This document shows positions 1-20,000 of a DNA stretch of 20,000 bases, piece by piece. The translations under genes were made by a program, and so were the position numbers. The stretch comes from an uncultured virus (IMG/VR IMGVR_UViG_3300017941_000006) (lineage: Duplodnaviria > Heunggongvirae > Uroviricota > Caudoviricetes). The notes below the pieces were generated by a model, which worked only from the letters and a program-made list of their open reading frames with translations, had not been told where the DNA came from and searched no databases. The stretch lies in the IMG/VR virus record IMGVR_UViG_3300017941_000006, one strand, 5' to 3'. How positions within the stretch are numbered: the stretch's first letter is position 1; each line of letters begins with the position of its first letter.

Positions 1-3
1 AAT

Positions 4-1452
4 ATGTATGTTCAGGGAGCAACAGCTTTTATAACAAAACCTTTTGATCTTGTACAAGATGCTGCAAGTGCTTTAAGTGATGTAGCTTTCGAAATGAGTT
101 CTGTGGCAGATGTACCTCACGAACTTATTCGATCTTTTAGAGAGATGGCATGTGCAATTACTTCAATCCCTCAAGCTGCCTTTCAAGGTTTTGCAAATCC
201 ATATGTATTTGAAGGAGAGAGCAACTGTGGGGCGAGTTTAGGGGTTCCAGATGCTCCTGTTGCAGGTTCCCCAAATAGTTTTACTGCTACTGCAGATCTA
301 CCTCCTGAAAGATTAGTTTCCCAAGTTTTTGAAAATCCACAACTTACTTTAACCCTTAAGGAAGATCCATTATCTGTGACCGGAGTCTATTTGACTACCG
401 ATGTGGCAAGAATTGGAAATAACTATTTAGATACATGGGTAGGGAAAGCAGTTAATCTTACCACAGTTCCAAACGCCCCTATTGTTGTAGATTACAAAGG
501 GTATCAAACTCCTTCTATTTTCCAAAAGATTATGCTTCATACAGCTCGTTCTCATATTGTTTTGGATGGTGATACTCTCGAGAGGATCTCATTAGAAGAA
601 TATGGTGATTCTTCAAGATGGAAAGAAATAGTTTTGTACAATAGTCTTGAATACCCTTTTACAGCCGGTACTAATTTTCAAACTAAGTATAAGTCTACAG
701 GTTTTGTTAGATTTTATAGAAAATCAGACTTCACCAGTGTTATTCTTATTCCGAAAGATACTGTTGTATGGAGTCCTGCATATCAAGGGACTAACCAAAT
801 AAATTTTGTGGTCACACAACCGACAGTTTTACCTATTTCAACATCTTATGTGGATGTTCCAATAGAAGCTCAGCAAGCCGGAGAGGCTGGCGATGTTGGC
901 CCTGGAAGAATTACTGGCTTTACAGGTTTTGTAACTTCTATACAGAAAATTTCAAACATCTCTGCTGTTATAGGTGGAAAAATTTGGAATGTTGCAAAAC
1001 CCGGCGATGTTTTGCAAATTCCGGATACCTCTGCTCCCTCTTCTGACAATATCGTATCTTCTGGAAACACGTATGAAGCATTGTTTGGTATAGATATATT
1101 GCTTAAAGATGGAGAGTTTGATTCCGGAATCGAAGGAAATCCAGATTTACAAAGAGTATATGGTGTTAAAAATTTAGAGCAGGCTTTAACGGATCGATTA
1201 CGAACATCTCTTGATTTTTATGTGTATCATCCCGAGTATGGCTCAAATATTCCCAAGTATATAGGACGCAAAAATATAAGTTATTGGGAAGACATAGTTA
1301 GTTGGGATATCCAAGATGTGTGTTTGCTAGACCCACGAATAAGCGAACTTCAAAATTTTATTCTGAATGCCGATGGAGATGCAATTCAGGTAGAATTTGA
1401 TGCAATTCCGATTAATGAAAATACGTCATTACCATTAAACATTATTTTGTAA
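4..1452 (+). CDS. Baseplate protein: LysM-like domain, baseplate-J-like insert and C-terminal gp25/GPW-like domain (possibly 5'-truncated)
   Basis: HIVLDGDTLERISLEEYGDSSRWKEIVLYN...PGDVLQIP is a phage tail LysM pattern. C-terminal DLQRVYGVKNLEQALTDRLRT...HPEYGS...DPRI resembles gp25/W. The frame is open to the window edge. Confidence 0.75.
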   Translation: MYVQGATAFITKPFDLVQDAASALSDVAFEMSSVADVPHELIRSFREMACAITSIPQAAFQGFANPYVFEGESNCGASLGVPDAPVAGSPNSFTATADLPPERLVSQVFENPQLTLTLKEDPLSVTGVYLTTDVARIGNNYLDTWVGKAVNLTTVPNAPIVVDYKGYQTPSIFQKIMLHTARSHIVLDGDTLERISLEEYGDSSRWKEIVLYNSLEYPFTAGTNFQTKYKSTGFVRFYRKSDFTSVILIPKDTVVWSPAYQGTNQINFVVTQPTVLPISTSYVDVPIEAQQAGEAGDVGPGRITGFTGFVTSIQKISNISAVIGGKIWNVAKPGDVLQIPDTSAPSSDNIVSSGNTYEALFGIDILLKDGEFDSGIEGNPDLQRVYGVKNLEQALTDRLRTSLDFYVYHPEYGSNIPKYIGRKNISYWEDIVSWDIQDVCLLDPRISELQNFILNADGDAIQVEFDAIPINENTSLPLNIIL

Positions 1453-1523
1453 GGACATAAGAGAATTGCATGCCGGATTATGGATTTTAGATGATTTGAT
1501 CCTTTTTAAGGTCGGAGGTTAAT

Positions 1524-3698: not shown

Positions 3699-3707
3699 GA
3701 TGATTTA

Positions 3708-6080: not shown

Positions 6081-6144
6081 ACAGTTTAGGAGATGGAATG
6101 CCAATGTTTAAAAGACAAAATTTACTTCGGAGGAAACTAAGATA

Positions 6145-7200
6145 ATGGCAGCTTGTGTGTGCTATAACACATGTTATCAGCAACAACCTTGTACTTGTGA
6201 TCACACGAACCACGGATATGTGGGTTGCACATGTGATGTTCATTGTTACGGACAAGGACAAGTCTGTACTTGTGACATGCTATGCTATGGGTATATTGCC
6301 TGTACTTGTGATAACACGACTTACGGAGCAACTTCGTGTGGATGTAATAATGCTTGTTACGGAGACAAAGGTTGCTCCTGTGATTTTCACTGCTATCAGG
6401 AAGCTTCTGTGCCTGCTGGTGCTCCCTCTTTGAGAGACACAGTATTGGCATATAAATATGAAGGCGGCTATGGTAGTGGAGGCTACGGTGAATTTTTTCT
6501 AATAGTTTCAGGGAAGATGTTTCCAGACCCGACAAATGAGGGAGATGCTACACTATTCGGTTGCAGTCATCAATTTAGTGGAATTGAATTTTTATTCGCT
6601 ACCCCCGGAGTTGGCGGCGCTTATATTTGGGAATACTGGACAGGCTCACAATGGACTACTTTGACTGTCCAAGATGGAACTTCAAAAGGAACTTTAGGAT
6701 TAACTCAAGATGGATGGATAAACTGGCTTGAAGGTTTGCGTGACTGGGTTTTAGCAGATATTCCAAGTACAGGAACCCCGAAGTATTGGGTTAGATGTCG
6801 AGTTTTTACGCCACCTTCAACAACTCCTAATATTTCATCGATGTGGATCACTTATGCGGGGCAGACTTGCCGTGGAGTATATGTTGCTAATGGAACGCCT
6901 TCTTGTAAATGTAATTATACTTGTTATGACTACTCACCATGCTTTTGTAATTTAACTGCATACGGCGGTTCGCCTTGTGAGTGTGATCAGGCTTGCTACG
7001 GAGACTTTTCTTGCAGTTGTGACATGACTTGCTATACTGAAGTTGCTGCAACATATGTCCCAGATAACAGGGATTTAAACAATTGCTATGTTTTTGCCGA
7101 GGGAACGTTTGCCAAACCGATTGTTGAGTCAGGTTTGCAACAAATAATTGACAGGTTAAAAACTGCCGGAACAATAGCTATAATAAATCCTTTGGATTAG
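6145..7200 (+). CDS. Cys-rich baseplate-associated protein carrying the apparent C-terminal part of the wedge protein
   Basis: Own SD GGAGG at 6129-6133. 11 Cys repeats, a WEYW..W...DGT beta-domain and the terminal GLQQIIDRLKTAGTIAII typical of wedge-protein C-termini. Confidence 0.75.
   Translation: MAACVCYNTCYQQQPCTCDHTNHGYVGCTCDVHCYGQGQVCTCDMLCYGYIACTCDNTTYGATSCGCNNACYGDKGCSCDFHCYQEASVPAGAPSLRDTVLAYKYEGGYGSGGYGEFFLIVSGKMFPDPTNEGDATLFGCSHQFSGIEFLFATPGVGGAYIWEYWTGSQWTTLTVQDGTSKGTLGLTQDGWINWLEGLRDWVLADIPSTGTPKYWVRCRVFTPPSTTPNISSMWITYAGQTCRGVYVANGTPSCKCNYTCYDYSPCFCNLTAYGGSPCECDQACYGDFSCSCDMTCYTEVAATYVPDNRDLNNCYVFAEGTFAKPIVESGLQQIIDRLKTAGTIAIINPLD
6154..6402 (+). repeat. Cys-rich coding repeat block 2 (7 units)
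   Basis: CVCYNTCYQ, CTCDHTNHG, CTCDVHCYG, CTCDMLCYG, CTCDNTTYG, CGCNNACYG, CSCDFHCYQ. Confidence 0.9.
6904..7038 (+). repeat. Cys-rich coding repeat block 3 (4 units)
   Basis: CKCNYTCYD, CFCNLTAYG, CECDQACYG, CSCDMTCYT. Confidence 0.9.
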
Positions 7201-7237
7201 ATGAGGTTTAGAAAATAAATTCTTTGGAGGTAGTAAA

Positions 7238-8515
7238 ATGAGTTTAGATTGCGTAAATTGGACCGATAAACAGCTTGATGAATTAGTAGACGTTCTTAGA
7301 AGTGGAGATCAGTCTATCGTTGCGACTTTTATGGCACAGAATTTTTTGTGTGTTGGTTCAAGGATAATGACTGACCCGGATAATACAACACTTAGACTAA
7401 GTGTTGGATCGGACACTAAGACTGTGTCCCTAAGCCCCGGAGCATTCCAGCATGCGGGTTTTATATCCCAAGTTGGAAGTGCAGAAGTTATAAATATTTT
7501 AAACACATCAACTGGAAAATGGGGAGTAGGGAAAATTGCGGATTCGAGTGCAAGATATTCAATAGTTATGGTTAAGTGGAATGATAGAATTCACACTCCT
7601 GGTCTTAGATTCTTTGTTGATGACACGGTTGTTCCGAATACCTATTTTCAACAAAATGCCAACACTTTGGTAGACAAGGCTTACTATGACATTGTGGTAA
7701 AACACGGAACACCGGGTGGTGGAGTGCCGGATGCCGATCCAGGCTTTTGGACTATCGGAGAAATATATATTCCAGCAAATGCAGCGTCAATAGACGCTGC
7801 TAATATTTATGATGTTGGTTGTGCAGACGGTTCTCAGCGTACTCCGCCAAATTGGGTATCGACCACAAGAGTTCTTCGATTGGAATTTATGGGAACCTCT
7901 TTAGGTGGTTTTAGTAAGTTCGCTGTAGATCATGATCCAGTTACTGGATATCATAGAACTGGATTTCACATCGGAAGTGTGGCTGTTGGAGCAAGTGTTA
8001 CGGCCCCGGCTTTAACAAAGTTATCAGATGGGTCTGTGCTTTCTCCAGGAGAATTGCATTCTCATGGAGCAGGAGCTGGGCTTGGCGTAAAATTTTTAGT
8101 TACTCCCACCGGTGGTGGTTTAAATAAACTTCTTTGGACATATGTAGGAGCCATTCCTTTTTCATCTTATGATTGGACAGATGTGAATGTATCTGGTGAT
8201 ACAGGAAGTGATGTACCTAAAGCCGTCCTTCTTGCAGTAGAGCTTCGAAGCACTTCTGTTGGAGCTTGGACAATCATACGAGGAATTTTTAGGAAAAAAG
8301 GTTCATCTGAAACCGATAGTTTACCAAGAATTGATAATTGGGCTATGGCAAGTTCGTCAAGTGGGGTAACAAAAGGAGGCGCAGCTTGCATGCTTATCGT
8401 GCCATGTGATGCATCCGGTATTTTTCAGGCAAAGGTTGAGTTTGTAGACGGACAAGTTGCCGGACAGGCAGGCAATCTTTACTTTAAAGTCGATATGATT
8501 GGATACTTTGTATAA
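7238..8515 (+). CDS. Putative tail fibre / baseplate structural protein
   Basis: Position after the wedge genes; SD GGAGG. VVKHGTPGGGVPDADPGFWTIGEIYIPANAASIDAANIYD and the C-terminal ...VDMIGYF pattern are seen in phage fibre proteins. Confidence 0.6.
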   Translation: MSLDCVNWTDKQLDELVDVLRSGDQSIVATFMAQNFLCVGSRIMTDPDNTTLRLSVGSDTKTVSLSPGAFQHAGFISQVGSAEVINILNTSTGKWGVGKIADSSARYSIVMVKWNDRIHTPGLRFFVDDTVVPNTYFQQNANTLVDKAYYDIVVKHGTPGGGVPDADPGFWTIGEIYIPANAASIDAANIYDVGCADGSQRTPPNWVSTTRVLRLEFMGTSLGGFSKFAVDHDPVTGYHRTGFHIGSVAVGASVTAPALTKLSDGSVLSPGELHSHGAGAGLGVKFLVTPTGGGLNKLLWTYVGAIPFSSYDWTDVNVSGDTGSDVPKAVLLAVELRSTSVGAWTIIRGIFRKKGSSETDSLPRIDNWAMASSSSGVTKGGAACMLIVPCDASGIFQAKVEFVDGQVAGQAGNLYFKVDMIGYFV

Positions 8516-8529
8516 AATAGGAGGATAAA

Positions 8530-9363
8530 ATGTCTTCATCTTACACGAAAAATTTAGGTTTGAGAAAACCGACTCACCGAGATCCGGAAACATTGGAATC
8601 GTGGGATGCTGTTCTTAACAACAACTTTGATATACTTGACTTGATAATAGGACTACGCCAATATACTTCGCAGAATTACATTGTAAATTCTGATTCATTA
8701 GCACAAGCTCTTAACAAAATAGATATGAAATTGAAAGATCTGGTTGATTCATCGTTAACGTCAGAGCAATTGGCAGCCTTGTTAGCTCTTCTTGGCTATG
8801 GGGTTCGACTAGCCCGAAAAGATGTCTTGTTTCCAGAATTTCCGGGGGCTACTTTTTGTGTGACACCAGGAAGTCCAAACCTTGGTATTTTTACGACTGA
8901 TAGCGAGATCGTAACAGTAACCGGTCTTGGGTATAGATTTAACTACTACGAATGGTATAGCTTAGAGACTGCTCTACTGCAGAGCTATGACATCTTAGTG
9001 CAGTGGAGAGTACCTGATACGTTTGTAAATTTTGGTACTACCATTTCACAGTCGAAGGTGCTGATCTTGGATATACGCACACAAAGCGCTGACGTGGCTG
9101 AATCATGCGTTGCTGTCGAACTTTGGAAAGATGGAACCGATCCAACCGATCCAGCAAAAATTTCTACTTCTGGGCCTAAGAGAAGCCAGGATGGTAATTG
9201 GAGGTCTTTACGATTTACGAATGAAGTTATATTTTTTGATGGTAGTGATAATATTCTTAAGGCGTTGGTCCCAGGAGATCTTTTGAATGTTCGTATTACA
9301 ATGAGCAGCAAGGATAACAACTATGCTCGGGTTGGGCCTATAACTATTAGTTATGTAGGATAG
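8530..9363 (+). CDS. Putative tail fibre / virion protein
   Basis: N-terminal YTKNLGLRKP...WDAVLNNNFDILD resembles fibre attachment segments; SD AGGAGG. Confidence 0.6.
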   Translation: MSSSYTKNLGLRKPTHRDPETLESWDAVLNNNFDILDLIIGLRQYTSQNYIVNSDSLAQALNKIDMKLKDLVDSSLTSEQLAALLALLGYGVRLARKDVLFPEFPGATFCVTPGSPNLGIFTTDSEIVTVTGLGYRFNYYEWYSLETALLQSYDILVQWRVPDTFVNFGTTISQSKVLILDIRTQSADVAESCVAVELWKDGTDPTDPAKISTSGPKRSQDGNWRSLRFTNEVIFFDGSDNILKALVPGDLLNVRITMSSKDNNYARVGPITISYVG

Positions 9364-9385
9364 TACTTAAACAAAGGAGGCAGAG

Positions 9386-11125
9386 GTGGCCGGAAATTAT
9401 TTTAGAGGTTATTACATAGGGATCGGAGATGTCCCAACTGATGCAGAGTTAATGAGACATAAGAAATGGTTTCGTGCAGGGGTAGCACCAGTACCACCAT
9501 TTAGTGGTCAATATCTTGGTTTTATTCCTTGGCATCTGACAGTCGAGGGAAATTATATCTACGTTTGCGGTCAACAGGCATATACAGTAGGTGGTATTGA
9601 TTTCTATGACGCTACTGTAATGAAGGTCGATAGAACTACTCTTGCAATAATTGATGGTTTTAGTCCCAGACAGGCAACTAATAATTTGAGTAACTATTTT
9701 CAAAGGGTTTACATTGACGGAAACGATATTTATTTGGTTGGGACAGCCTATATTGACTCTCTCAAGAAGGCAGTAGTTACGAAAAGAGATAAAAATAATC
9801 TTTCGACTGAATACTGGACTAATTATTATCCACTTGGTGCAGGTTACTCTCTTGCTCAAGCTGTAAGTTGCGTTTCAGATGCTTTGTATCTATATGTTAC
9901 AGCAAATTATAATGATGCGCCCGGTCATTCAGCACCTTATAGATGGAAATTAAATAAGTCCGATGGTTCCACGGTTTGGGTAGGAGGTTCTGGCACTGCC
10001 GTGACAACATACGATGGTATAATTGATACTGGAAGTTATGTTGTTTTAGCTGGATCGGCAGGAGGTGATAGAGTAATTGAAAGGGTTGATAAGGCAACAA
10101 ACTTATCTGTGATCCACAGTATCAGCAGGGATCGCTATGCGAACATGGGCATAGTTTATGGTGGTTTGATTTCCATCCCTCAAGGCCCAAATAATGGAAA
10201 CACATTTATAAATGATTCTGCATATGGGAGTGTAAATTGGTTGAATCCGGGCAATGCTCAAGCTTCTGATGATGTGTATGCAACGGCAGGTGGAGGAAGC
10301 ACCAAATATTTGAAAGCAACTGGTTTTGGTTTCTCAATTCCTACCGGAGCTACCATAGTTGGTGTTGCTGTTGATGTAGAAAGACATGCTGGGGGTCCAA
10401 GTCACTATGCATATACCCAGTTGGCAAAATTGGTAAAGGCTGGTGTCGTAATAGGAACCTCACAAGCTGAAGGTTCGAATTGGCCTACTACGGATACTTA
10501 TGCAACTTATGGGGGGTCTTTTAACTTGTGGGGAACGACCTGGACTCCTGATGAAATTAATGCGGCGGGTTTTGGGTTTGCAATATCTGCCTATGTGAAT
10601 TCGGGGGACACTGCATACATTGACCACATAAGAATCACTGTTTATTACACTATGGGTAGCGCTCCCGCTGTATACTATGTTTGTGGGAATAGCTATCAAA
10701 GTATTATTACGCCACCATACGGAGACCCCAGGGTTTCTGTATTAGAATATGGTGCAGATTTTGTCAAAGTTTGGGAATGGACTAAGAATTATATTGTAGA
10801 TACTAATCTGCAAGAGGTATTGCTCAATAGCGTTATAGATGCCTCAGGTATTTATTCAATAGGAAGTATTCAGTATGAACCAACTCCTCTTGTTTATTAT
10901 AACCAGGCTATCCTTACAAAGATTGGTTTAGACGGGTCTCATCTTTGGGATTTGCAGCATGAGACACAATATATGACTGCTATAAGAGCAATTGGTCTGG
11001 ATATTGCTACTGTTCCTACTACTTTAGTAGTTGGGGTTTGTGATAACAATCCAGCTTTACCTGTTTCGCAACGTTACAGTTATCTTGAAAAAAGGTCAAT
11101 AGCAACTGGATTGATTTTTATCTAA
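9386..11125 (+). CDS. Putative beta-propeller receptor-binding / virion protein with an inserted beta-sandwich
   Basis: GTG start after AAGGAGG. Repeated blade-like segments (GNYIYVCG, GNDIYLVG, ALYLYVTA, SYVVLAG, SGIYSIG). Confidence 0.6.
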   Translation: MAGNYFRGYYIGIGDVPTDAELMRHKKWFRAGVAPVPPFSGQYLGFIPWHLTVEGNYIYVCGQQAYTVGGIDFYDATVMKVDRTTLAIIDGFSPRQATNNLSNYFQRVYIDGNDIYLVGTAYIDSLKKAVVTKRDKNNLSTEYWTNYYPLGAGYSLAQAVSCVSDALYLYVTANYNDAPGHSAPYRWKLNKSDGSTVWVGGSGTAVTTYDGIIDTGSYVVLAGSAGGDRVIERVDKATNLSVIHSISRDRYANMGIVYGGLISIPQGPNNGNTFINDSAYGSVNWLNPGNAQASDDVYATAGGGSTKYLKATGFGFSIPTGATIVGVAVDVERHAGGPSHYAYTQLAKLVKAGVVIGTSQAEGSNWPTTDTYATYGGSFNLWGTTWTPDEINAAGFGFAISAYVNSGDTAYIDHIRITVYYTMGSAPAVYYVCGNSYQSIITPPYGDPRVSVLEYGADFVKVWEWTKNYIVDTNLQEVLLNSVIDASGIYSIGSIQYEPTPLVYYNQAILTKIGLDGSHLWDLQHETQYMTAIRAIGLDIATVPTTLVVGVCDNNPALPVSQRYSYLEKRSIATGLIFI

Positions 11126-11135
11126 CGGAAAGTAG

Positions 11136-11306
11136 ATGCTAAAATCCGAATGTCTTGAATGCAGAAAAGTATACAAAGAGGTAGATGACGGAAAGAGGAA
11201 AGTGGACATAACTCATGGCTTTTGCCCGGTGTGTCTTAAAAAGATTCGTGAAAATAAAAAAATTCAAAAAGAAAGGAATAAATCATGTTCTCAGAAAAAG
11301 CTTTGA
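11136..11306 (+). CDS. Small Zn-finger protein (CxxC...HGxCxxC), 56 aa
   Basis: Hand translation MLKSECLECRKVYKEVDDGKRKVDITHGFCPVCLKKIRENKKIQKERNKSCSQKKL; below the ORF-track cutoff; overlaps the lysin start. Confidence 0.6.
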   Translation: MLKSECLECRKVYKEVDDGKRKVDITHGFCPVCLKKIRENKKIQKERNKSCSQKKL

Positions 11307-11962
11307 AACTTATACTTGATGAAGAGGGTCTTGATCAACCGTCTTTATGGCCTGGAAAGAGTTCCGGAATAACTATTGGAGTTGGCTATGATTTGGGGTA
11401 TGAGTCTAATTTTGAAAACGATTGGAAGCCCTACTTATCTCCCGATGAAATCGCCAGGCTTAAAACTGTCTTAGGACTTAAAGGCCAGGACGCTGCAAAG
11501 AGAGCTCCGGAGTTTAAAGATATTAAGATAAGCAGAGAGGAAGCAAATAGAGTTTTCATGGATAAAACTCTCCCGGAATACACAAGACAAACTCGAGTAG
11601 CTTTTCCAGGGTTTGACAGTCTACCATTAGATGCTCAGGGAGCTTTGGTATCTCTTGTCTATAATAGAGGTGCCGGTATGAGTGGGGATACCAGACTCGA
11701 GATGAGAAATATCCGAGACCTTGTCCCTAACATGGATTTGAAAGGAATAGTCGACCAGATAAGATCAATGAAGAGATTGTGGCCCAATGATTCCGCTTTG
11801 AAAAATAGAAGAGACCACGAAGCCGATTTAGTGGAAAGCTGTATTTTGACTTCAATGGTAGAGCCAGGACTTGAAGAAGCCAAGGAAATCCCTCAGCCAC
11901 AAGGTTTAGCTGGACTTGTTGGGGCTCTCATTAAGATAATAAGAAGTGTTTTGAAGATTTAA
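11285..11962 (+). CDS. Endolysin, pesticin-C/T4-lysozyme-like muramidase
   Basis: EEG...WPGKSSGITIGVGYDLG...QGALVSLVYNRG...LKNRRDHEADL motifs; position at the start of the lysis module. Confidence 0.85.
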   Translation: MFSEKALKLILDEEGLDQPSLWPGKSSGITIGVGYDLGYESNFENDWKPYLSPDEIARLKTVLGLKGQDAAKRAPEFKDIKISREEANRVFMDKTLPEYTRQTRVAFPGFDSLPLDAQGALVSLVYNRGAGMSGDTRLEMRNIRDLVPNMDLKGIVDQIRSMKRLWPNDSALKNRRDHEADLVESCILTSMVEPGLEEAKEIPQPQGLAGLVGALIKIIRSVLKI

Positions 11963-11981
11963 AACATAGGAGGTGATTTGT

Positions 11982-12545
11982 ATGGATTTTCTATCAATGC
12001 TTAGTGGCTACGTGGATGTTGGAAGTGTTCTTTTAGGGATTATCCTAACTCAGCTGATTAGATACTTACTTCCTACTCCGAAGGGATCTCCCAGCAAATT
12101 TGATGTCGGCCCTGTTGCTTACAGGTTTTTACCTTTCTTTCCCTTGTTTATAGGAGCCGCAACTGTTATATTAAAGGATGGGATAATAACCCCTACCATT
12201 GCTCTTGACGAAGCAATTGTTAAGGGTTTTATTTCAGGGGCGTGTGCTTCCTACTTATACAGGATGGTTAGAGTTACAATCTTTGGGAAGGCCTCAAATG
12301 GAAACGGGAATGGAAATGGACATGATGAGCATCATGACCATGACCATGATCACGATGAAAGGCATTACGATCATGACGAAGAAAGACATGACGAAGAAAG
12401 ACACGACCATGATGAACACGACCATGATGAAGAACGACACCACGATGAGGAAAAACCCGCTGATACTTCAACTAAGACTCCGGATGTTCCGGCTGATGTT
12501 AAGGCTGTTCCGGTTGAAGCTAAGCCTATACAAGACGTAAAGTAG
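11982..12545 (+). CDS. Holin-like membrane protein with His/Asp/Glu-rich C-terminal tail
   Basis: About three hydrophobic segments; directly after the endolysin. ATG 11982 is best spaced from the SD AGGAGGT. Confidence 0.6.
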   Translation: MDFLSMLSGYVDVGSVLLGIILTQLIRYLLPTPKGSPSKFDVGPVAYRFLPFFPLFIGAATVILKDGIITPTIALDEAIVKGFISGACASYLYRMVRVTIFGKASNGNGNGNGHDEHHDHDHDHDERHYDHDEERHDEERHDHDEHDHDEERHHDEEKPADTSTKTPDVPADVKAVPVEAKPIQDVK

Positions 12546-12573
12546 AAATAAGAAGATGACTGTGTTATATAAT
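12543..12573 (+). promoter_or_regulatory. Candidate sigma70-type promoter upstream of RNA motif copy A
   Basis: TGtTATATAAT at 12563-12573 (TATAAT 12568-12573); weak -35 TAGAAA 12543-12548. Predicted start about 12580. Confidence 0.45.
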
Positions 12574-12581
12574 TAAGAAGT

Positions 12582-12660
12582 AGGCTGAGTACAGCAAAAA
12601 AACTATGGCGAAAGGGTAGGCGGGCTCGAATCAGCCTGAAGAAAAGAATCCGACCTACCC
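12582..12660 (+). ncRNA. ACAGCAA stem motif, copy A, with an interlocking second helix
   Basis: AGGCTGA(12582-88)/TCAGCCT(12631-37) encloses TACAGCAAAA. GGGTAGGCGG(12614-23) pairs with CCGACCTACCC(12650-60). Confidence 0.6.
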
Positions 12661-12680
12661 AACTAAAAAAGGAGGATGAT

Positions 12681-12833
12681 ATGTTTGGATTCGGATTTGT
12701 AGTTGGAGCAATTGTTTTTGGGGCAGCTGGCTGGGGCTTAACGTATCTGTGGTTTAAGAGAGCTAAGATTCAAGCCAAGATTGCTGCCAAGGTTAATGCA
12801 GCAACAGCTGCTGTGGCCGGGGTGAAGAAGTAA
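12681..12833 (+). CDS. Small single-TM protein, 50 aa
   Basis: AAGGAGG SD; MFGFGFVVGAIVFGAAGWGLTYLWFKRAKIQAKIAAKVNAATAAVAGVKK. Confidence 0.75.
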   Translation: MFGFGFVVGAIVFGAAGWGLTYLWFKRAKIQAKIAAKVNAATAAVAGVKK

Positions 12834-12838
12834 AGAAT

Positions 12839-12951
12839 GGGTGGAGGGGAAAGCGCAACCTGCTCGAGTGTCCAAATGAGCTTTCCAAAGCTCTTGAGAA
12901 TGGTGGGAAAAAGGGATAAAATAAAATATGCAGGCCACCAGCCCTCCACCC
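12839..12951 (+). ncRNA. Predicted ~113-nt structured RNA
   Basis: Perfect 10-bp terminal helix GGGTGGAGGG/CCCTCCACCC; also CCTGC/GCAGG, GAGCTTT/AAAGCTC and TGGTGG/CCACCA. Confidence 0.5.
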
Positions 12952-12973
12952 GGCCTTTCATTAGAGAAAAAAG

Positions 12974-13429
12974 ATGAACTTTTTAAATGCAATAGATTAT
13001 AAATTGATTCTCTATGTTTTAGGGAGCGCTGTGGCCTTATACTTGACCTTTGTTTTTATCTCCATCATATTAAAAGGATGGGGTTCCCTAACAAGTATTT
13101 GGTTCTGGACGAAAAAAATCGGATGGATTTTTGTTATATTAATTGGGTTGTTCTTTGCGTTAAGAGCTCTTCGTAAGAAAACTGAAGCAAAGAATGTCAT
13201 TGATACCAATTTATCAAATCTCCAAAAGATTGAAGACAAAACCCAAGCAGATAAGCAAAGGGAAGCAGAGCTCATAGTACAGAAAAAGGAAGTCGAACAA
13301 AGCATAGTAGTTTTAGCCAAGAAGTATCAAGATAAAGTGGATTCTTTAAATAAACGTCCGGACGATAAACCTACTGACCCACCGGGACATGCCGGGCAAA
13401 GTTACGAAGACCTTAAAAATTCATGGTAA
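12974..13429 (+). CDS. Membrane protein with C-terminal coiled coil (i-spanin-like candidate)
   Basis: Two N-terminal hydrophobic helices, then a charged heptad-rich region; located in the lysis module. Confidence 0.5.
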   Translation: MNFLNAIDYKLILYVLGSAVALYLTFVFISIILKGWGSLTSIWFWTKKIGWIFVILIGLFFALRALRKKTEAKNVIDTNLSNLQKIEDKTQADKQREAELIVQKKEVEQSIVVLAKKYQDKVDSLNKRPDDKPTDPPGHAGQSYEDLKNSW

Positions 13430-13506
13430 AGGGGAAAGAAATGATTTCAATACGTTCACTGCCGTTTAGATGGAGAGGAATATAGGCTTTTCCTCCTCAA
13501 GGACTG

Positions 13507-13560
13507 AAGATTGGCTACAGCAACAAAAACCCACTCACATGGATAAAGTTCCAATCTGTT
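13507..13560 (+). ncRNA. ACAGCAA stem motif, copy B
   Basis: AGATTGG(13508-14) ctACAGCAAcaaaaaccc ... CCAATCT(13551-57) GTT. Confidence 0.65.
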
Positions 13561-13581
13561 AATTATTGAGGAGATAAAATA

Positions 13582-13653
13582 ATGGGAAGATTGGTTTCCG
13601 CAATAAAACATGGTGGAAAGCTGGGGGTCGAACCCTGGAACCAATCTGTTTAA
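13582..13653 (+). CDS. Possible 23-aa leader peptide spanning motif copy C
   Basis: GAGGAG SD at 13568-73; MGRLVSAIKHGGKLGVEPWNQSV*. Confidence 0.3.
   Translation: MGRLVSAIKHGGKLGVEPWNQSV
13587..13650 (+). ncRNA. ACAGCAA stem motif, copy C (variant TCCGCAA)
   Basis: AGATTGGTT(13588-96) TCCGCAAtaaaa ... internal hairpin CTGGG-GGTCGAA-CCCTG ... AACCAATCT(13639-47) GTT. Confidence 0.6.
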
Positions 13654-13674
13654 AAAAGGAAAGGAGAAATTAAC

Positions 13675-14277
13675 ATGGCAACAGCAACAGAAATCTACAA
13701 AGCAATAGCAGATAAGATTCGAGCAGATGCAGCGATTAATCACCCTGGTGACAAGTCCTATGGGGACGAAGCTAACTTGGTAGAATATATTGGGGTTCTT
13801 GTTGACAGAACAACTACCTATGCAGCCCAGGTTAAGGGGTGTGTTGATCCTATGAAGACTACACTCCTACTTTGGGTATCAGGATTTAATGGCTTACTCC
13901 AAGCGATGCAGATCTACAATAACACATTTACTTGCGCCAAGGAGATGCGCAAGGGATACGAGAGTGCACAAGTAGTCAGAGGACTTCCAGTACTCCCAAC
14001 GCTAAGTTTAGCAGCCATCGACGCAGATACCACAAAGTGGTTCATCAATGTGCAGAATTTATCCAAGTACTGTCAATGGTCACCCTATGACATGACTGTG
14101 CCGAGACCTGATTTGTCCTCTGTCTTGAAGAACGTATACAATCAATACGTAGTACTGAGAGACATGGGGGCTACTACAGAACCACTTCCAGTTGTGCCAC
14201 CTGTTTCTCTTGAGCCGAGGGTTAAGGCCCTGGAAGACGCAATGGTTGCAGTAAAGGCAGCTCTAAAAATATCCTAA
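13675..14277 (+). CDS. Hypothetical protein, 200 aa, flanked by the RNA-motif repeats
   Basis: Strong SD AAGGAG; no family recognised; short C-terminal coiled coil (LEPRVKALEDAMVAVKAALK). Confidence 0.75.
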   Translation: MATATEIYKAIADKIRADAAINHPGDKSYGDEANLVEYIGVLVDRTTTYAAQVKGCVDPMKTTLLLWVSGFNGLLQAMQIYNNTFTCAKEMRKGYESAQVVRGLPVLPTLSLAAIDADTTKWFINVQNLSKYCQWSPYDMTVPRPDLSSVLKNVYNQYVVLRDMGATTEPLPVVPPVSLEPRVKALEDAMVAVKAALKIS

Positions 14278-14286
14278 CTTAGATTT

Positions 14287-14345
14287 AAGATTGGTTACAG
14301 CAACAAAAACCCATGCAAAAGGACGCCGAAAGGCACCAATCTGTT
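14287..14345 (+). ncRNA. ACAGCAA stem motif, copy D
   Basis: AGATTGGT(14288-95) tACAGCAAcaaaaaccc ... GCC-GAAA-GGC ... ACCAATCT(14335-42) GTT; the first 27 nt match copy B at 26 positions. Confidence 0.65.
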
Positions 14346-14354
14346 TAATGAACA

Positions 14355-14509
14355 ATCCCAGTCCATCTTATGACCACGTGTTATAGGAGATGACTGTGGA
14401 AAGTCCTTCGGAGGCGAGAAGACCGAACCGGTCGACAGGTAAGCCAATGAATGGACTGAATAAGGCCGTAGCAGAAGGTCTTTCCGTGGCCACGGTTCTG
14501 CAGCGGGAT
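14355..14509 (+). ncRNA. Predicted ~155-nt multi-helix, pseudoknotted RNA
   Basis: ATCCC/GGGAT ends; CAGTCCAT/ATGGACTG; GACCG/CGGTC; GGAAAGTCCTTC(14398-409)/GAAGGTCTTTCC(14474-85). GC-richer than the flanks and no ORF. Confidence 0.55.
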
Positions 14510-14518
14510 ACTAAATCT

Positions 14519-14560
14519 TTCCCCTTGTTTCTCCTAAAGAGCGATAAGGGGAATTAAATT
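14519..14560 (+). terminator. Terminator-like hairpin
   Basis: TTCCCCTT(14519-26)...AAGGGGAA(14546-53) followed by an AT-rich tail; the U-tract is weak. Confidence 0.45.
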
Positions 14561-14609
14561 AAAGTCCCATCAGGTAAGTAGTTAAGTCCTGATGTCTTAC
14601 AGGTGAACT

Positions 14610-15110
14610 ATGAAAAAACTTATTATTGCACTATGTTTATTAACTTTTAGTTGTACTCCTCTTTTAAAGTATACCCCTCCTGTAATAGAACCCCCTAAAA
14701 AGATGGAACACTATGCGTTACCTGTTGATCCGACAGCCTCTTTGTCTCCTCCAAAGGCCATCTTTCTTAAACAGGACACAGATGGTAAATACATCGAGTG
14801 TCCCGAGACAGAAGCCTATCTTACCGCATATACCGGAAAAGAGCATGATAAAATTGTTCTCAGGTTAACATATTACAAGGAATTGATTCCTCAGATGGTT
14901 AATTATGTCAATGTTATTATAGACATAGGTAACGTCAGATTAGACCTCCAAGTAGACCAAAGGCTCGTAACAGAAGTTTACAAGCAAATGTGGATCGATG
15001 CTGTAAACAATACTACAGTTCAACAACGATGGGATACCCTTGCAAAGACAGGTCAATGGGCACTTATCATTGCTGAGATGGCAGCCATCATTCTTCTTAT
15101 CGTAAAATAA
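14610..15110 (+). CDS. Lipoprotein with C-terminal TM helix (spanin candidate)
   Basis: MKKLIIALCLLTFSC lipoprotein signal, Pro-rich linker, C-terminal WALIIAEMAAIILLIVK. Confidence 0.6.
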   Translation: MKKLIIALCLLTFSCTPLLKYTPPVIEPPKKMEHYALPVDPTASLSPPKAIFLKQDTDGKYIECPETEAYLTAYTGKEHDKIVLRLTYYKELIPQMVNYVNVIIDIGNVRLDLQVDQRLVTEVYKQMWIDAVNNTTVQQRWDTLAKTGQWALIIAEMAAIILLIVK

Positions 15111-15133
15111 TTCGTAAAAAACAAAGATTTTTC

Positions 15134-15163
15134 TTGACAAAGACGTAAAAAATAGTGTATCAT
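15134..15163 (+). promoter_or_regulatory. Sigma70 promoter starting the early/accessory region
   Basis: TTGACA (15134-39), 18-nt spacer, TATCAT (15158-63). Confidence 0.7.
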
Positions 15164-15244
15164 CTTGTTATATTAATTGATGATGCAGATGTCAAAAGTG
15201 ACAACCAAAGCGACCTAAACCGTTAAAAATGAAAGGAGTAAACT

Positions 15245-15646
15245 ATGTTCAGAGAGTATATTCCAAAAACCAGAGGTGCTACCAATGCTGCTCTAAAGGA
15301 AGAAATTGTTATGTCGTATACAGCCATGCGGTTCTCGAAAGAATTTTGGGAGAGAGAACCTTGAAAGATGTGGGCTTTTCCCAGAGAAGATCAAGATTAA
15401 GATTAAAATTCTTAATTCGAACATTCATAACAAGTTTAGACTTTTCCTCTTGGACTCTGAAACCTGCCACCTCTTGGGGATCGACCGGAATGATTCCAAC
15501 TTGATTGGCTTCTTTGTCAAATAGGAGCCTAATCCTTTCTGCCCCCAAAAGTTATGAACATGGGCTCCAACACCCGAATGAGAATCATAGACCTGAATCA
15601 GTATTGCAAACCAAAAGGGGGTGATATGAAATCACAGATGAAATGA
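15245..15646 (+). pseudogene. 133-aa gene disrupted by an internal inversion (15360-15550)
   Basis: SD AAAGGAG and ATG 15245. As written it stops at TGA 15362-64. Reverse-complementing 15360-15550 gives an uninterrupted frame to TGA 15644-46. Confidence 0.75.
15360..15550 (-). other. Inverted 191-bp segment bounded by AAC(15357-59)/GTT(15551-53)
   Basis: The minus strand encodes LLGAERIRLLFDKEANQVGIIPVD...EKPTSFK in exact register with both + strand flanks. Confidence 0.75.
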
Positions 15647-15729
15647 GATGAAAAATACCGCCGTGGCTAAAGTGTTTGAAAATTGAATTCTAAACTTAAA
15701 AACAAATCTAAAAAAGGAGAAATGAAAAC

Positions 15730-16047
15730 ATGAAGAAGATTCTAATTGCGATGTTGTTAGTGTTGGCGATGGTGTGTATGACGGTGCCTGCAATGGCAGC
15801 CAAGGGGTTTTATGTAACAGGAACATCCAGCGCAGCAGTGAGCTCGATTTCTGGAACTACTGGTTTCGGAATTTCAGCTACTTGTGCAAGTGCATGGAAT
15901 GGTTCTCTCGCTACGGTTACTTTCCCAAGTGGCAATGCGGTGAGTACATATGCTAACTCTGGTGGGAAAACATTCACAGGTGGCTTTAACGGCAATACTC
16001 TGGCCGAGATGAGTGGCAGCGCTTATGCTACTGGATGGAAGAACTAA
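15730..16047 (+). CDS. Small exported Gly/Ser/Ala/Thr-rich protein
   Basis: Sec signal MKKILIAMLLVLAMVCMTVPAMA; SD AAGGAG. Confidence 0.75.
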   Translation: MKKILIAMLLVLAMVCMTVPAMAAKGFYVTGTSSAAVSSISGTTGFGISATCASAWNGSLATVTFPSGNAVSTYANSGGKTFTGGFNGNTLAEMSGSAYATGWKN

Positions 16048-16062
16048 AGATTTTAAATCGAG

Positions 16063-16092
16063 AGAAGGGGGCTTAGTCCCCCTTCTACTTTT
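16063..16092 (+). terminator. Rho-independent terminator
   Basis: AGAAGGGGG-cttagt-CCCCCTTCT then acTTTT. Confidence 0.7.
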
Positions 16093-16114
16093 CCTTAAAG
16101 GAGGAAACTAAAAA

Positions 16115-16861
16115 ATGAAAATGAGATTATTGTTTGTAATCATGATTATGATTTTGGTTTTACCAGTAATGACATTTGCCCAAGTTACGACCAGTGACTC
16201 GAAGGCTGGTGCCCTTGCTATCAGTGCCCCTACTATTAGCCCTACGGTTAATAGTAAGAACGATTCGGGAGCTATAGCAGCTGTGATGTCTTCTCCTAAC
16301 TATTTGCAACCGCAACCGATATACCCCTATCTATTGCAAATGGTTCCCGGTATGGCAGGTCGTGTGCCTGAAGGAGATGTGCCTGAGTTCTTTGCCATTC
16401 AGAGATTGAAGTTGAAGAAAGTCTTTACAAATCCTGTTACGGGTGAGGAAAGAGTTATTCAAGAAGGCGATAAGGTTATTAGGGTCGAGCCTTATACGAG
16501 AGGCGGAAGATGGATGGGCTTCTCCAGAATTGAAGATTATGATCAAGACCTTCTCGCATTGGTGCCAAAGGTTATGAAACTGTTTGGGCAGAAGGATACC
16601 ACTAATATTAGATTTGATGTCTCATTCAAGACATCCCAAAAGTCTATCGGTTCTAATGCTGGCGGTGGTGGATCGGCTGCAGGTTTTCAAGGTGGAGTCA
16701 ATCCAGTTGCCTGGGGGTCAAATGTTTCTGGAATTGGAGCATTCGCAGTTAATACCTTCGATCCAAAAATAACGCTCAAGTTCTATCTTATAAAGACCGA
16801 CCAGAAGATTTCTGAGTTGGAGTATAAAGAGCAGGGTTGGAGTAAAGCGGAATCGAAGTAG
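16115..16861 (+). CDS. Exported hypothetical protein
   Basis: Signal peptide ending VMTFA; SD AAGGAGG. Confidence 0.75.
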   Translation: MKMRLLFVIMIMILVLPVMTFAQVTTSDSKAGALAISAPTISPTVNSKNDSGAIAAVMSSPNYLQPQPIYPYLLQMVPGMAGRVPEGDVPEFFAIQRLKLKKVFTNPVTGEERVIQEGDKVIRVEPYTRGGRWMGFSRIEDYDQDLLALVPKVMKLFGQKDTTNIRFDVSFKTSQKSIGSNAGGGGSAAGFQGGVNPVAWGSNVSGIGAFAVNTFDPKITLKFYLIKTDQKISELEYKEQGWSKAESK

Positions 16862-16884
16862 GCCCCGGTTAATTCAAATAGAGA

Positions 16885-16919
16885 GGAGAGGGTAACCAAA
16901 TCCCTCTCCACTTTTCTTT
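16885..16919 (+). terminator. Rho-independent terminator
   Basis: GGAGAGGG-taaccaaat-CCCTCTCC then acTTTTcTTT. Confidence 0.65.
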
Positions 16920-16930
16920 GGAGAAAAGGG

Positions 16931-17029
16931 ATGAAAGAAAGAACAAAGGCAAATTTGAGAATTGTGATTTTATGGTTAGGCTTTGTAGCAATCTTAGCTA
17001 TTTTTATGTATTGCACAGTGAGAAAATAA
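16931..17029 (+). CDS. Small single-TM protein, 32 aa
   Basis: MKERTKANLRIVILWLGFVAILAIFMYCTVRK; GGAG upstream. Confidence 0.55.
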   Translation: MKERTKANLRIVILWLGFVAILAIFMYCTVRK

Positions 17030-17112
17030 CACCCATAGAAGGGAGGTGAAACTATGAGAAAGATGTTTGTACTAGCTGTCTCATAATTAAAGTTGGATAA
17101 GGAGGTAGAGAG

Positions 17113-17607
17113 ATGAAAAAATTATTTCTATTGATGATGGTGATTGGGTTGTTGGTGAGTGGGTGTGGCGGTCAACTAAGGAGTAACTGGGTTAGACCTG
17201 ACGGACCAACCGATTACGCTCAGCTCCGAATTGATTGGGGTTACTGTAATCAGGAATCTTCAAAGGAGATGCCCAATCAAGGACTGATTTTCATTCCCTA
17301 TTATGGCATGTACCATGCTATAAAATATTCGTATGCTATGGATGCAAAGCTTCACGAGTGCATGAAGGAAAGAGGATATGTCCTTAAAGGAGATTTAAAG
17401 ACCACCAAAGGTTACGTGAAAGAGGAATACAAAGAGGATTCTGTGGATAAGAAGGAACGTGATGAAATCTGGGTAATGGTCTTCCCTGAAGGAAGGTTTT
17501 ATCACATTCGGTCCTGTCCAGTTCTTAAAAGCTCTATTGGGCAAAATATGAAATTGAAGGATGCTGAGAAGAGAGGATATCTGCCATGTCCACATTGTAT
17601 AAAATAA
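17113..17607 (+). CDS. Lipoprotein with C-terminal Ada-like Zn-binding motif
   Basis: Lipobox LVSGC; C-terminal GRFYHIRSCPVL...AEKRGYLPCPHC; SD AAGGAGG. Confidence 0.75.
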   Translation: MKKLFLLMMVIGLLVSGCGGQLRSNWVRPDGPTDYAQLRIDWGYCNQESSKEMPNQGLIFIPYYGMYHAIKYSYAMDAKLHECMKERGYVLKGDLKTTKGYVKEEYKEDSVDKKERDEIWVMVFPEGRFYHIRSCPVLKSSIGQNMKLKDAEKRGYLPCPHCIK

Positions 17608-17655
17608 AGTGAGGATTAAGATGCCCGAGAAAAAAGTAAATGGCTGGCTTTATGG

Positions 17656-17832
17656 ATGGAAAGACATAGCCCAATAAAATGGGTTTGCAAGGGCCAGTGT
17701 AAGCCGTTTGAAACATCCCTTGCCAGTTGTTCCGACCGGATCAAAAGAGCTCATGCAGCAGGGTTGAGTGCGATTGACGAGCGAAACAGTTGCCTCAAAG
17801 ATAGGGGCTGGGTTTGGGAAGAAACAAAATAA
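17656..17832 (+). pseudogene. Fragment resembling the mature domain of the 17113 lipoprotein (no signal peptide)
   Basis: IKWVCKGQ...SLASC...NSCLKDRGWVWEETK parallels NWVRPDG...DWGYC...HECMKERGYVLK; no good SD. Confidence 0.4.
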
Positions 17833-17873
17833 ACACCTCGGGGACGGATTAGGTTAAGTCCAAAGGAGATTTT

Positions 17874-17993
17874 ATGAAAAAGATTTTGGTACTGATTTTA
17901 TGTTTTGTTTTCCTGAGCGTGATTGGATCGATGGCTGCACAACAGTATCAGTATAAGCCGCCCCCACCAAGACCGGCACCACCTCAAAATTAA
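17874..17993 (+). CDS. 39-aa secreted Pro-rich peptide precursor
   Basis: SD AAGGAG; MKKILVLILCFVFLSVIGSMAA-QQYQYKPPPPRPAPPQN. Confidence 0.6.
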   Translation: MKKILVLILCFVFLSVIGSMAAQQYQYKPPPPRPAPPQN

Positions 17994-18015
17994 AAATTCA
18001 AAGGAGGTCTAAGTC

Positions 18016-18195
18016 ATGGAGAAGAAAATTATAATTGAATGGGATAAGAATTCCAAAGCAAAAATAGAGGTCGAAGGTGCAGTCGGGCAAGAATGCATAA
18101 CATTGACAGATGCCCTTGAAAGAAGTCAGGGAACTGTGGAGAACAGAGAGCTAAAAGACGAATACAATCAAGGTGAGCCAATCAAAGTGAGGTAA
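18016..18195 (+). CDS. DUF2997-like small protein, 59 aa
   Basis: SD AAGGAGG; MEKKIIIEWDKNSKAKIEVEGAVGQECITLTDALERSQGTVENRELKDEY matches the EVxGxxGxxCxxLTxxLE...KxEY pattern. Confidence 0.7.
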   Translation: MEKKIIIEWDKNSKAKIEVEGAVGQECITLTDALERSQGTVENRELKDEYNQGEPIKVR

Positions 18196-18234
18196 TGGGT
18201 TGTTTGTTGGTCCATTAAGAGAGGGGGTAAAGTT

Positions 18235-18435
18235 ATGCCAGTTCATTTTGATGGAAGAGATTTAAAAGTAACAAAACCGAAGGAAGTTATTGAGTTGATC
18301 TTTACAGAAGACTCGATAACATCCCCGTGGTGGACGAAGGAAACAAGTAAATTGATGTGCAAACTTTGTCCCAAAAAGGATACTGAAAATTGCAATCAAA
18401 TGACTTGTCTAAATTCTAACCCTTGGTGTGGCTGA
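18235..18435 (+). CDS. Small Cys-rich hypothetical protein
   Basis: C-terminal CKLCP...CNQMTCLNSNPWCG; purine-rich SD. Confidence 0.6.
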   Translation: MPVHFDGRDLKVTKPKEVIELIFTEDSITSPWWTKETSKLMCKLCPKKDTENCNQMTCLNSNPWCG

Positions 18436-18464
18436 AACCTTAACCATGAAACGGAGGTAATGAA

Positions 18465-20000
18465 ATGGCTGATGAAAAGAAAAAAGAGAAAGATGAAGGC
18501 GTGTGGTCAAGATTCCATGAAGAGCTTGAACTAAGGATTAAAGCCGGGATAGCTTGCATATGGGTTCAGACCAATGAAGAGGAAAGAGCTCTTAAGGCAA
18601 TCAAGACAGTTTGTGATAGCCTTGATAACCTTCTCTATGTTTGGGACTTGGCTTCGGCCATGATCTATTTGTATCAGGAACAGAAAAATCCTGAGAAACC
18701 ACTTCAAGGAACGTCTGCTCTTCCGGTTGAAGCGATTGCAGCATTTAGCAAGAAGACATATCGAGATCGGTCTATTCTTGTGCTTCTTGATTACCATTGG
18801 TCGATCAATCAGCCCCTTGCTATTCGGAAACTCAAAGATGCCCTTCCAATTTTGAGAGGCAATGCAAAAGGCGTGATCTTTGTTGGGCCCCGATTGCAAA
18901 TGACGGAAGAGACAGAAAAGGATATTACGTATCTTAACCTTGATCTTCCGGGTAGGGACGAATTGAAAGTTTATCTTGGCTATGTTCGGGAGTCGGTTGC
19001 AGCCAATACCGGGAAACCTTGTAATTGCAAAGACTGTAAAGGTAAACTGGTTCATGTTACCCCGGAAACAGAAAGCAAGCTTGTTGAAGCAGCTTTAGGA
19101 CTGACAAGCCAAGAAGGAGAGGATGCCTTTAGCTTTGCCGGTGCCAAACATAACGACTTTGAGGGCAACTCTATTAACCTAATCATCGACCAGAAATGCC
19201 AGGTCTTGAAGAAAGAAGGAATTCTCGAATACATAAAGACCGAAGAGAGTATGGCGACAGTTGGTGGTTGTGAGAACATCAAGAACTGGTGCTTGAAACG
19301 GAAAAGAGCTTTTACCCCGAAGGCGTCGGCGTTTGGTCTTCCTGCTCCAAAAGGAATTATCCTGATGGGTGTTCAAGGGGCAGGGAAAAGTTTGTTGGCA
19401 AAAGCAATCGCAGCTTATTGGCAAGTTCCCCTTTTGCGTTATGATGTTGGTAAGTCATATAGCAAATGGCAAGGGGAAACAGAGGGTAGTGTTCGGAAGG
19501 TTATTGAGACCGCTGAGATCATGAGTCCATGTGTCCTCCACATTGACGAGATTGAGAAAGCCTTTTCCGGTATTCAATCTTCTGGACAAACGGACTCTGG
19601 AACGACAGCAAGGTTTGTTCAGACCTTCTTGACATGGTTACAAGAGAAGGTTAAGCCTGTATTTGTGTTTGCAACCTGTAACAATATCGGCAATTTGATA
19701 TCTGCATGTCCGGAGTTGTTAAGGAAAGGCCGATTTGATGAAATCTTTTTCGTTGATCTTCCAGATCGGAAGGCCAGATCAGAGATCATAAAGATTCATT
19801 TAAAGAAACATCCTTTGATGGATGAGAAAACCGGGAAGCTTGCTAAAGCTCGTGAATTTTCCCAAAAGGATATTGATCGAATTGTTGATGTAAGCGCTGG
19901 TCAGGGTGGTAATTCATATACCGGTGCCGAGATTGAGCAAGGTATCATTGCTGGTTTGTATGAGGCTTTTGAAGAAGGGGAGCGAGACCTTGTAGCGGAT
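18465..20000 (+). CDS. Ycf46-like AAA+ ATPase (3'-truncated by the window; absent from the ORF track)
   Basis: SD GGAGG and ATG 18465. N-domain WVQTNEEER...LLDYH; Walker A GVQGAGKS (19368-91); Walker B LHIDEIEK; SRH PELLRKGRFDEIFFVDLP. Confidence 0.9.
   Translation, partial: MADEKKKEKDEGVWSRFHEELELRIKAGIACIWVQTNEEERALKAIKTVCDSLDNLLYVWDLASAMIYLYQEQKNPEKPLQGTSALPVEAIAAFSKKTYRDRSILVLLDYHWSINQPLAIRKLKDALPILRGNAKGVIFVGPRLQMTEETEKDITYLNLDLPGRDELKVYLGYVRESVAANTGKPCNCKDCKGKLVHVTPETESKLVEAALGLTSQEGEDAFSFAGAKHNDFEGNSINLIIDQKCQVLKKEGILEYIKTEESMATVGGCENIKNWCLKRKRAFTPKASAFGLPAPKGIILMGVQGAGKSLLAKAIAAYWQVPLLRYDVGKSYSKWQGETEGSVRKVIETAEIMSPCVLHIDEIEKAFSGIQSSGQTDSGTTARFVQTFLTWLQEKVKPVFVFATCNNIGNLISACPELLRKGRFDEIFFVDLPDRKARSEIIKIHLKKHPLMDEKTGKLAKAREFSQKDIDRIVDVSAGQGGNSYTGAEIEQGIIAGLYEAFEEGERDLVAD

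Follow-up and report, generated by a model that had tools for sequence, protein, structure and literature searches.

A balanced 191-bp inversion within an accessory early gene of a peat phage is polymorphic between samples

A gene for a 133-residue protein is split by the inversion of an internal 191-bp segment (197 bp including its AAC and GTT ends) in a peat phage that is myovirus-like and has a genome of about 170 kb. The gene was examined in a 20,000-nt stretch of the phage genome, hereafter the window, to which all positions refer. The inverted allele is the main form in one public sequencing run (X1), and three others (X2, X3 and X5) yield contigs with the gene intact. We consider the most probable explanation (at roughly 0.7) to be a recent, balanced and spontaneous inversion, bounded by microhomology, that is polymorphic from sample to sample and turns an accessory early gene into a null allele. 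The window offers a clean natural instance of an inversion that is balanced, lies inside a gene and has only 3 bp of inverted homology, and that became the main form in an environmental phage population.

An internal inversion truncates a 133-residue gene

In the window as it stands, the gene is present in three pieces (Table 1). An earlier reading of the letters (the first-pass annotation) had placed a frame from ATG 15245 to a stop at 15362. These coordinates are correct; the resulting stub is 39 residues long, the peptide given earlier having missed the final proline. The stub is itself on record as the protein P0013, which comes from a 78,907-nt contig, and matches the window's own. The sigma70 promoter that had been put ahead of the gene can be retained as a site at 15134-15163 with 11 of 12 positions matched, and its role as a promoter goes no further than this consensus match. 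It is the sole such site in 14900-16200, where shuffled sequences gave a mean of 3.0 (sd 1.8).

The middle of the gene is read on the minus strand, where it lies within a frame of 79 residues (15309-15548) amid an array of plus-strand genes. The earlier description of a minus-strand frame in an otherwise plus-strand region is borne out, and by eye no ribosome-binding site precedes its TTG. Over its last 16 residues, this frame runs antisense to the 5' piece of the gene proper. Its interpretation as a gene in its own right was considered and rejected, the only close relative being a cluster of proteins colinear with the reconstructed gene (below). A plus-strand message would yield the 39-residue stub only, with the remainder antisense or without a start, which suggests loss of function.

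Table 1. Features of the split gene and its surroundings (window positions).
Feature	Position	Strand	Description
Sigma-70-like promoter site	15134..15163	+	TTGACA, 18-nt spacer, TATCAT; 11/12 positions; consensus match only
Truncated frame, 39 aa (P0013)	15245..15364	+	38 native codons, one foreign codon (P), TGA at 15362-15364
Variant B replacement stretch	15277..15608		332 nt replaced by 1354 other letters; branch points 15276/15277 and 15608/15609
Left microhomology AAC	15357..15359		Left junction anywhere from 15356/15357 to 15359/15360
Inverted segment, 191 nt	15360..15550	-	Minus strand encodes residues 39-102 of the intact protein
Right microhomology GTT	15551..15553		Reverse-complementary to AAC on the left
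Stranded 3' piece of the gene	15551..15646	+	Codons 103-133 and stop; unjoined to the 5' piece in the window
A-run	15608..15610	+	One more A in P0001 would shift the last codons (126 against 133 aa), as judged from the protein ends and the window DNA

Reverse-complementing 15360-15550 by script yields one open frame of 133 residues, as the first-pass annotation had it. The reconstructed frame is identical to the database protein P0012 at 133/133 residues, and to the protein P0001 at residues 1-122. P0001 (126 aa) was the one close relative returned by a search with the minus-strand frame, and it contains in order the plus-strand stub, the minus-strand frame and the plus-strand 3' piece. Its cluster has two further members, P0012 (133 aa) and the stub P0013 (39 aa). 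P0012 comes from two contigs of other assemblies, the longest of 2702 nt.

The open frame alone is weak evidence for an inversion, since among 5000 random 191-nt inversions made within the window 14.5% leave a stop-free plus-strand frame through the segment, and 6.9% give 126 residues or more. Chance is insufficient to explain the restored frame, yet it is not negligible. The decisive support is therefore provided by the exact database protein together with colinear homologues, rather than by the open frame. An exhaustive HMMER search with P0001 against 1.84 billion representatives returned 10 proteins at E <= 0.001, of 95-133 residues and with 33-50% identity. All ten match in a single colinear stretch over both breakpoints (e.g. 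over query residues 2-121, 1-123 and 23-122), and this was the outcome expected had the reconstructed protein been real. In the alignment of the family (A1), a conserved block FW..EL...ERVRLFFD crosses the left breakpoint, and W35, G57, P60 and M112 are invariant. As the homologues are colinear across both breakpoints, the un-inverted order can be taken as ancestral for the family on the strength of these alignments. The identity with P0012 and the colinear homologues thus confirm the structural claim made at first pass, i.e. a clean internal inversion that truncates the gene. For annotation, the consequence is that the deposited contig displays a 39-residue stub plus a spurious frame in antisense in place of the single 133-residue gene of its relatives.

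Gene order and further variants in public sequencing runs

All or part of the 4-kb stretch concerned is contained in 15 peat or wetland runs, in contigs assembled at k=31. The contigs of four of these (X1, X2, X3 and X5) were compared over 14800-16100. Their 16 contig records are at least 99% alike, with no other letters or gaps apart from the rearrangement. In X1, which contains 0.99 of the words and is the probable source run, a 7173-nt contig over 14800-15386 contains the left junction and a 224-nt contig over 15357-15580 the right junction, both in the inverted (I) order. The intact (U) order is found in a 2605-nt contig of X2 (depth 16.8; strands +/-/+ on 15247-15356, 15357-15553 and 15554-16100), a 392-nt contig of X3 (depth 21) and a 345-nt contig of X5 (depth 6.35). 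Read in their own coordinates, the U-order contigs run on unbroken (0 gaps, 0 other letters), and hence the inversion is balanced.

No inverted junctions were found among the assembled contigs of X2, X3 and X5. The X2 and X3 contigs cross the intact-order junctions unbranched, and this speaks against a large share of the inverted form in these runs; contig evidence drops rare variants, and a low inverted share is possible in all three. The independent k=31 assembly of X1 in the I order indicates that the junctions are present in the reads and do not stem from an error of graph traversal. The inverted order is not an assembler error, as had been one of the earlier suggestions, and the inverted form is best treated as a true allele with nothing to 'correct'. 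The inversion is polymorphic between samples, and perhaps also within samples. The earlier proposal of a fixed inactivating inversion is kept in its second term; 'fixed' is too strong, given that X2, X3 and X5 are intact and X1 has one U junction.

A sister virus record of 37 kb (G001), rated 22% complete, is 100% identical to window 1-15276 over 15,276 nt (G001:C1:21782-37057). Hence, measured against point mutation, the inversion is young. All compared sequences are identical outside the rearrangement and thus provide no markers to separate haplotypes.

The assembly graph of X1 can be read in two ways. One contig of 57 nt (depth 5) has 15551-15580, reverse-complemented, adjoining 15360-15386 and thus represents the right U junction; the left junction of the intact order was not assembled among the X1 contigs. 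The segment contig (15357-15580) has a depth of 13.5 versus 7.43 and 7.92 for the flanking contigs, unlike a simple mix of two alleles. The graph fits coexisting alleles of which the weaker left path has been lost, and also fits fold-back molecules, in which the right flank adjoins the segment at both ends, alongside a population that is purely inverted.

A further joint was observed in X5. There, the final 30 nt (15591-15620) of the 345-nt intact-order contig recur in reverse complement at its start, joined to 15306. This joint (15306/15591), at depth 6.35, has fold-back topology and is the second between opposite strands. There is no X5 coverage of 15277-15305.

These observations bear on the possibility that the inverted order is an artefact of library construction or amplification, whereby fold-back or MDA-type chimeric reads would have entered both assemblies via the same reads. 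MDA chimeras are described as mostly inverted junctions, primed at 2-21 complementary bases and with intervening deletions, in the available text of Lasken and Stockwell 2007 (PMC1855051). The 3 bp seen here fall within that priming range and the change itself departs from that description, as the inversion is balanced, both junctions are exact and nothing is deleted. One-sided fold-back topologies in X1 and X5, as well as the excess segment depth in X1, would suit an artefact. Furthermore, X1 is maybe the window's own source, in which case the two may share reads and the k=31 assembly is not independent at read level. Chimeras are stochastic and not expected to displace the true path, whereas in X1 the intact left junction is absent from the contigs and the inverted one lies in a 7173-nt contig at the phage's own depth. 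On balance we regard an artefact as very unlikely. The same holds for the MDA-type chimera raised at first pass, which is made unlikely by a balanced change with no base lost or gained that is the main form, and the main assembled path, in X1.

The gene is affected by other changes in addition to the inversion. In variant B, carried by other genomes of the same phage population, a stretch that includes most of the gene is replaced by different letters (Table 1). X5 assembles this variant in a 32,136-nt through-contig (depth 19.2), and in X2 and X3 it forms side contigs (depths 7.2 and 11-13) whose loose ends lie at 15276 and 15609; it was not seen among the X1 contigs. An exact scan with the 30-nt loose end of variant B gave 0 matches in viral contigs, from which records near the window were possibly excluded. 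Read from this loose end in the frame of the gene, variant B would leave a 14-codon stub and so is predicted to be without the gene. Its branch point at 15276/15277 explains why G001 ends exactly at 15276, and this end looks like an assembly break caused by polymorphism. Nothing in G001 matches window 15277-20000. Since variant B replaces the gene, the gene is dispensable; it is an accessory, early gene. P0001 diverges from P0012 past residue 122, and the A-run at 15608-15610, the putative site of a frameshift, sits at the boundary between variants A and B.

The replacement and the frameshift in sibling genomes mark the gene as dispensable and possibly selected against, which makes it a candidate for testing effects on the host or on host defences. 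It is conceivable that the gene is a hot spot of inactivation under selection, with a product that is costly in some hosts (e.g. sensed by a host defence) and independent knock-outs that rise in frequency. Such a model would account for four lesions in one 400-bp gene of a nearly clonal population, namely the inversion, the 1354-nt replacement, the A-run frameshift and the second opposite-strand joint, and for the predominance of the inverted allele in X1. In phages, accessory early genes are highly variable in any case, and no function that might explain a cost could be assigned from Pfam (nothing below E 0.02) or PHROGs (1/11 members, E >= 0.031). Selection of this kind is unlikely as a separate explanation; it is compatible with a spontaneous inversion creating a null allele, to which it adds only a motive.

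Breakpoints and the origin of the inversion

The sequences at the two ends of the segment, AAC and GTT, are reverse complements, and consequently each junction can be placed only within 3 bp. The contexts of the two breakpoints are identical at 13/53 positions. The best inverted 14-mer within 40 nt of both breakpoints matches at 10/14, a value attained by 56% of 300 random pairs. No inverted repeats at the segment ends beyond the 3 bp of AAC/GTT are better than chance. The statement at first pass that the inverted homology amounts to only 3 bp (AAC 15357-15359 and GTT 15551-15553) thus stands, with no longer repeat beyond chance and no pair of inverted repeats on either side of the segment. 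Microhomology of at least 3 bp is found at 5.7% of random position pairs, and because of this frequency a 3-bp match is weak evidence for any given mechanism.

No recombinase family was found among the 19 window ORFs scanned, in agreement with the earlier statement that the window contains no recombinase. The suggested look for an invertase elsewhere in the genome gave no candidate either: the 37-kb record G001 has 0 matches to four recombinase families, PF00239 (Resolvase), PF00589 (Phage_integrase), PF07508 (Recombinase) and PF01548 (DEDD_Tnp_IS110), with positive controls. In total, the recombinase search covered about 42 kb of phage sequence, roughly a quarter of the genome.

According to the explanation we favour, the inversion would have had a single origin, either in illegitimate recombination guided by microhomology or in (double) template switching at the 3-bp inverted match, and a dedicated invertase would not be involved. 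By splitting the conserved core of the 133-residue protein, the event would create a null allele. The inverted form is now the main one in X1, and the contigs of X2, X3 and X5 have the gene intact.

Phages are known to have invertible segments served by a serine invertase. In Mu (G/Gin) and P1 (C/Cin), kilobase segments are flanked by inverted repeats of tens of bp and adjoin an invertase gene, and their inversion swaps alternative tail-fibre ends such that both orientations are productive. The present case resembles them in that a phage-borne inversion alters the protein made. It differs in that none of their features were found here, and one orientation is presumably null.

Intragenic invertons are known from bacteria. 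They are defined and detected by a flanking pair of inverted repeats (by einverted) and flipped by site-specific recombinases, as described in the available text of Chanin et al. ('Intragenic DNA inversions expand bacterial coding capacity', bioRxiv 10.1101/2023.03.11.532203), where the thiC example has an 11-position repeat. Going by that description, both cases comprise a short inversion wholly within a coding sequence, a truncated product and both orders in natural sequence data. Unlike those invertons, the segment studied here has 3 bp of inverted homology, is phage-borne and has no recombinase in the sequence searched. Repeat-based inverton callers would probably not propose the site at 15360-15550.

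A template-switching process has been reported for organelles as U-turn-like inversions, in which the nascent strand re-anneals on the opposite strand at short inverted microhomologies (Zampini et al. 2015, PMC4417113). The available text of that report describes them as mostly shorter than 50 bp, with one-sided junctions and at low frequency. The one-sided joints in X1 and X5 share this topology. In contrast, the 191-bp inversion is balanced with two junctions, and it is the main allele in the phage population.

The first-pass annotation had also raised an intragenic ON/OFF switch. In such a model, a recombinase encoded elsewhere, by the phage or its host, would flip the 191-bp segment reversibly and in a programmed manner between sites sharing a 3-bp core. 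Both orders do occur in a population that is otherwise identical (0 other letters in four runs over 1.3 kb, and 100% identity with G001 over 15.3 kb), and X1 has the inverted order plus one intact-order junction. The position of the gene, first behind a promoter-like site, would be apt for a switch; the second opposite-strand joint in X5 suggests repeated events; and the recombinase search reached only a minor part of the genome. A switch is nevertheless unsupported. There are no inverted repeats longer than 3 bp, the best 14-mer being equalled by more than half of random pairs, whereas known intragenic invertons have flanking inverted repeats and site-specific recombinases in the account cited above (bioRxiv 10.1101/2023.03.11.532203). 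No recombinase was found in the window ORFs or in G001, some 42 kb together. Furthermore, the contigs of X2 (depth 16.8) and X3 (depth 21) assemble the intact order unbranched, and no inverted junction is present in the contigs of X2, X3 or X5, which is unlike a fast switch. We therefore judge a programmed switch to be quite unlikely.

The second opposite-strand joint in X5 shows that joints of inversion type recur at the locus, which suits a hot spot better than the single origin that we propose for the inversion. Two further readings can be envisaged. The first is a hot spot of inversion free of repeats, at which parts of the gene would be flipped reversibly, either by an unseen recombinase (e.g. 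a guide-RNA-directed IS110-type enzyme with a short core) or by a mechanism linked to replication. The second is the selection of several independent knock-outs because the 133-residue protein is sensed by a host defence. Taken together, we hold these two readings to be improbable. If either were true, repeat-based inverton finders would miss phage variation of this type. A spontaneous null allele, as favoured here, would surprise specialists only if reversibility or selection were shown.

The encoded protein and its genomic setting

An AlphaFold model of the protein computed with alignment A1 has a mean pLDDT of 83.7 and a pTM of 0.76; folding from the single sequence is poor (pLDDT 39). The inverted segment corresponds to residues 39-102, which form the well-modelled core of the AlphaFold model.

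Searches for relatives of assigned function gave little. Pfam returned nothing better than E 0.024 for the protein, and in PHROGs two unnamed families were hit by one of the 11 members each (E 0.031 and 0.066). A sequence profile against the PDB had 0 matches at E <= 10, and Foldseek against the PDB had 0 at E <= 0.001. Six matches at E <= 0.001 were obtained in BFVD, all to uncharacterised phage proteins, the best being Gp105 of Lactococcus phage KSY1 (TM 0.65). VIA-align against 48,161 chains gave none at Z >= 5. Its top match was 1n0e, an MraZ-type UPF0040 protein (Z 4.5, rmsd 3.6, 84 aligned), and the plant B3 domains 1wid (Z 4.2) and 6j9b (Z 3.9) were also matched. MraZ and plant B3 domains are grouped together as swapped-hairpin or pseudo-barrel DNA-binding folds. 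For the P0012 protein, the modelled similarity is at most a hint of a DNA-binding pseudo-barrel fold.

The ESM Atlas returned hypothetical clusters only, with no function. All members of one structural neighbour cluster there (317 aa; 104 residues aligned, TM 0.63 by query) have PF07508 (Recombinase). On the basis of these models, the P0012 fold may occur fused to large serine recombinases, which we offer as a lead only.

Related loci were sought in viral and metagenome contigs, from which records near the window were possibly excluded, and none were confirmed with P0001; an exact 40-nt stretch of the segment had 0 matches in the same type of contigs with the same possible exclusion. Searches with the upstream neighbour protein and with P0003 confirmed no related loci either, and P0012 found no match by tblastn among 50,697 phage records.

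The window lies on a contig of 78.9 kb, and almost all of its long ORFs are on the plus strand. No tRNA or Rfam family was found in the window. Upstream ORFs match Baseplate_J, a sheath initiator and baseplate PHROGs. A likely lysis block is located at 11285-13429, with a lysozyme/pesticin-like protein (PF16754, E 8.9e-07) and, behind it, two membrane proteins that match holins weakly.

The split gene is situated among small plus-strand genes (14610-15110, 15730-16047, 16115-16861, 17113-17607 and 17874-17993) that have, by eye, signal-peptide-like N-termini. None of these has a Pfam family. Two of their products have a Cys past the hydrophobic stretch and appear lipoprotein-like, again by eye. 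Directly 3' of the gene at 15730-16047, a strong terminator-like hairpin (16063-16086) comprises 9 pairs, 6 of them G-C, and a T-rich tail. The right end of the window (18465-20000) encodes a large AAA ATPase (PF00004, E 7e-25), which matches phrog_8638, an unnamed phage family, over nearly its full length (E 9.5e-109).
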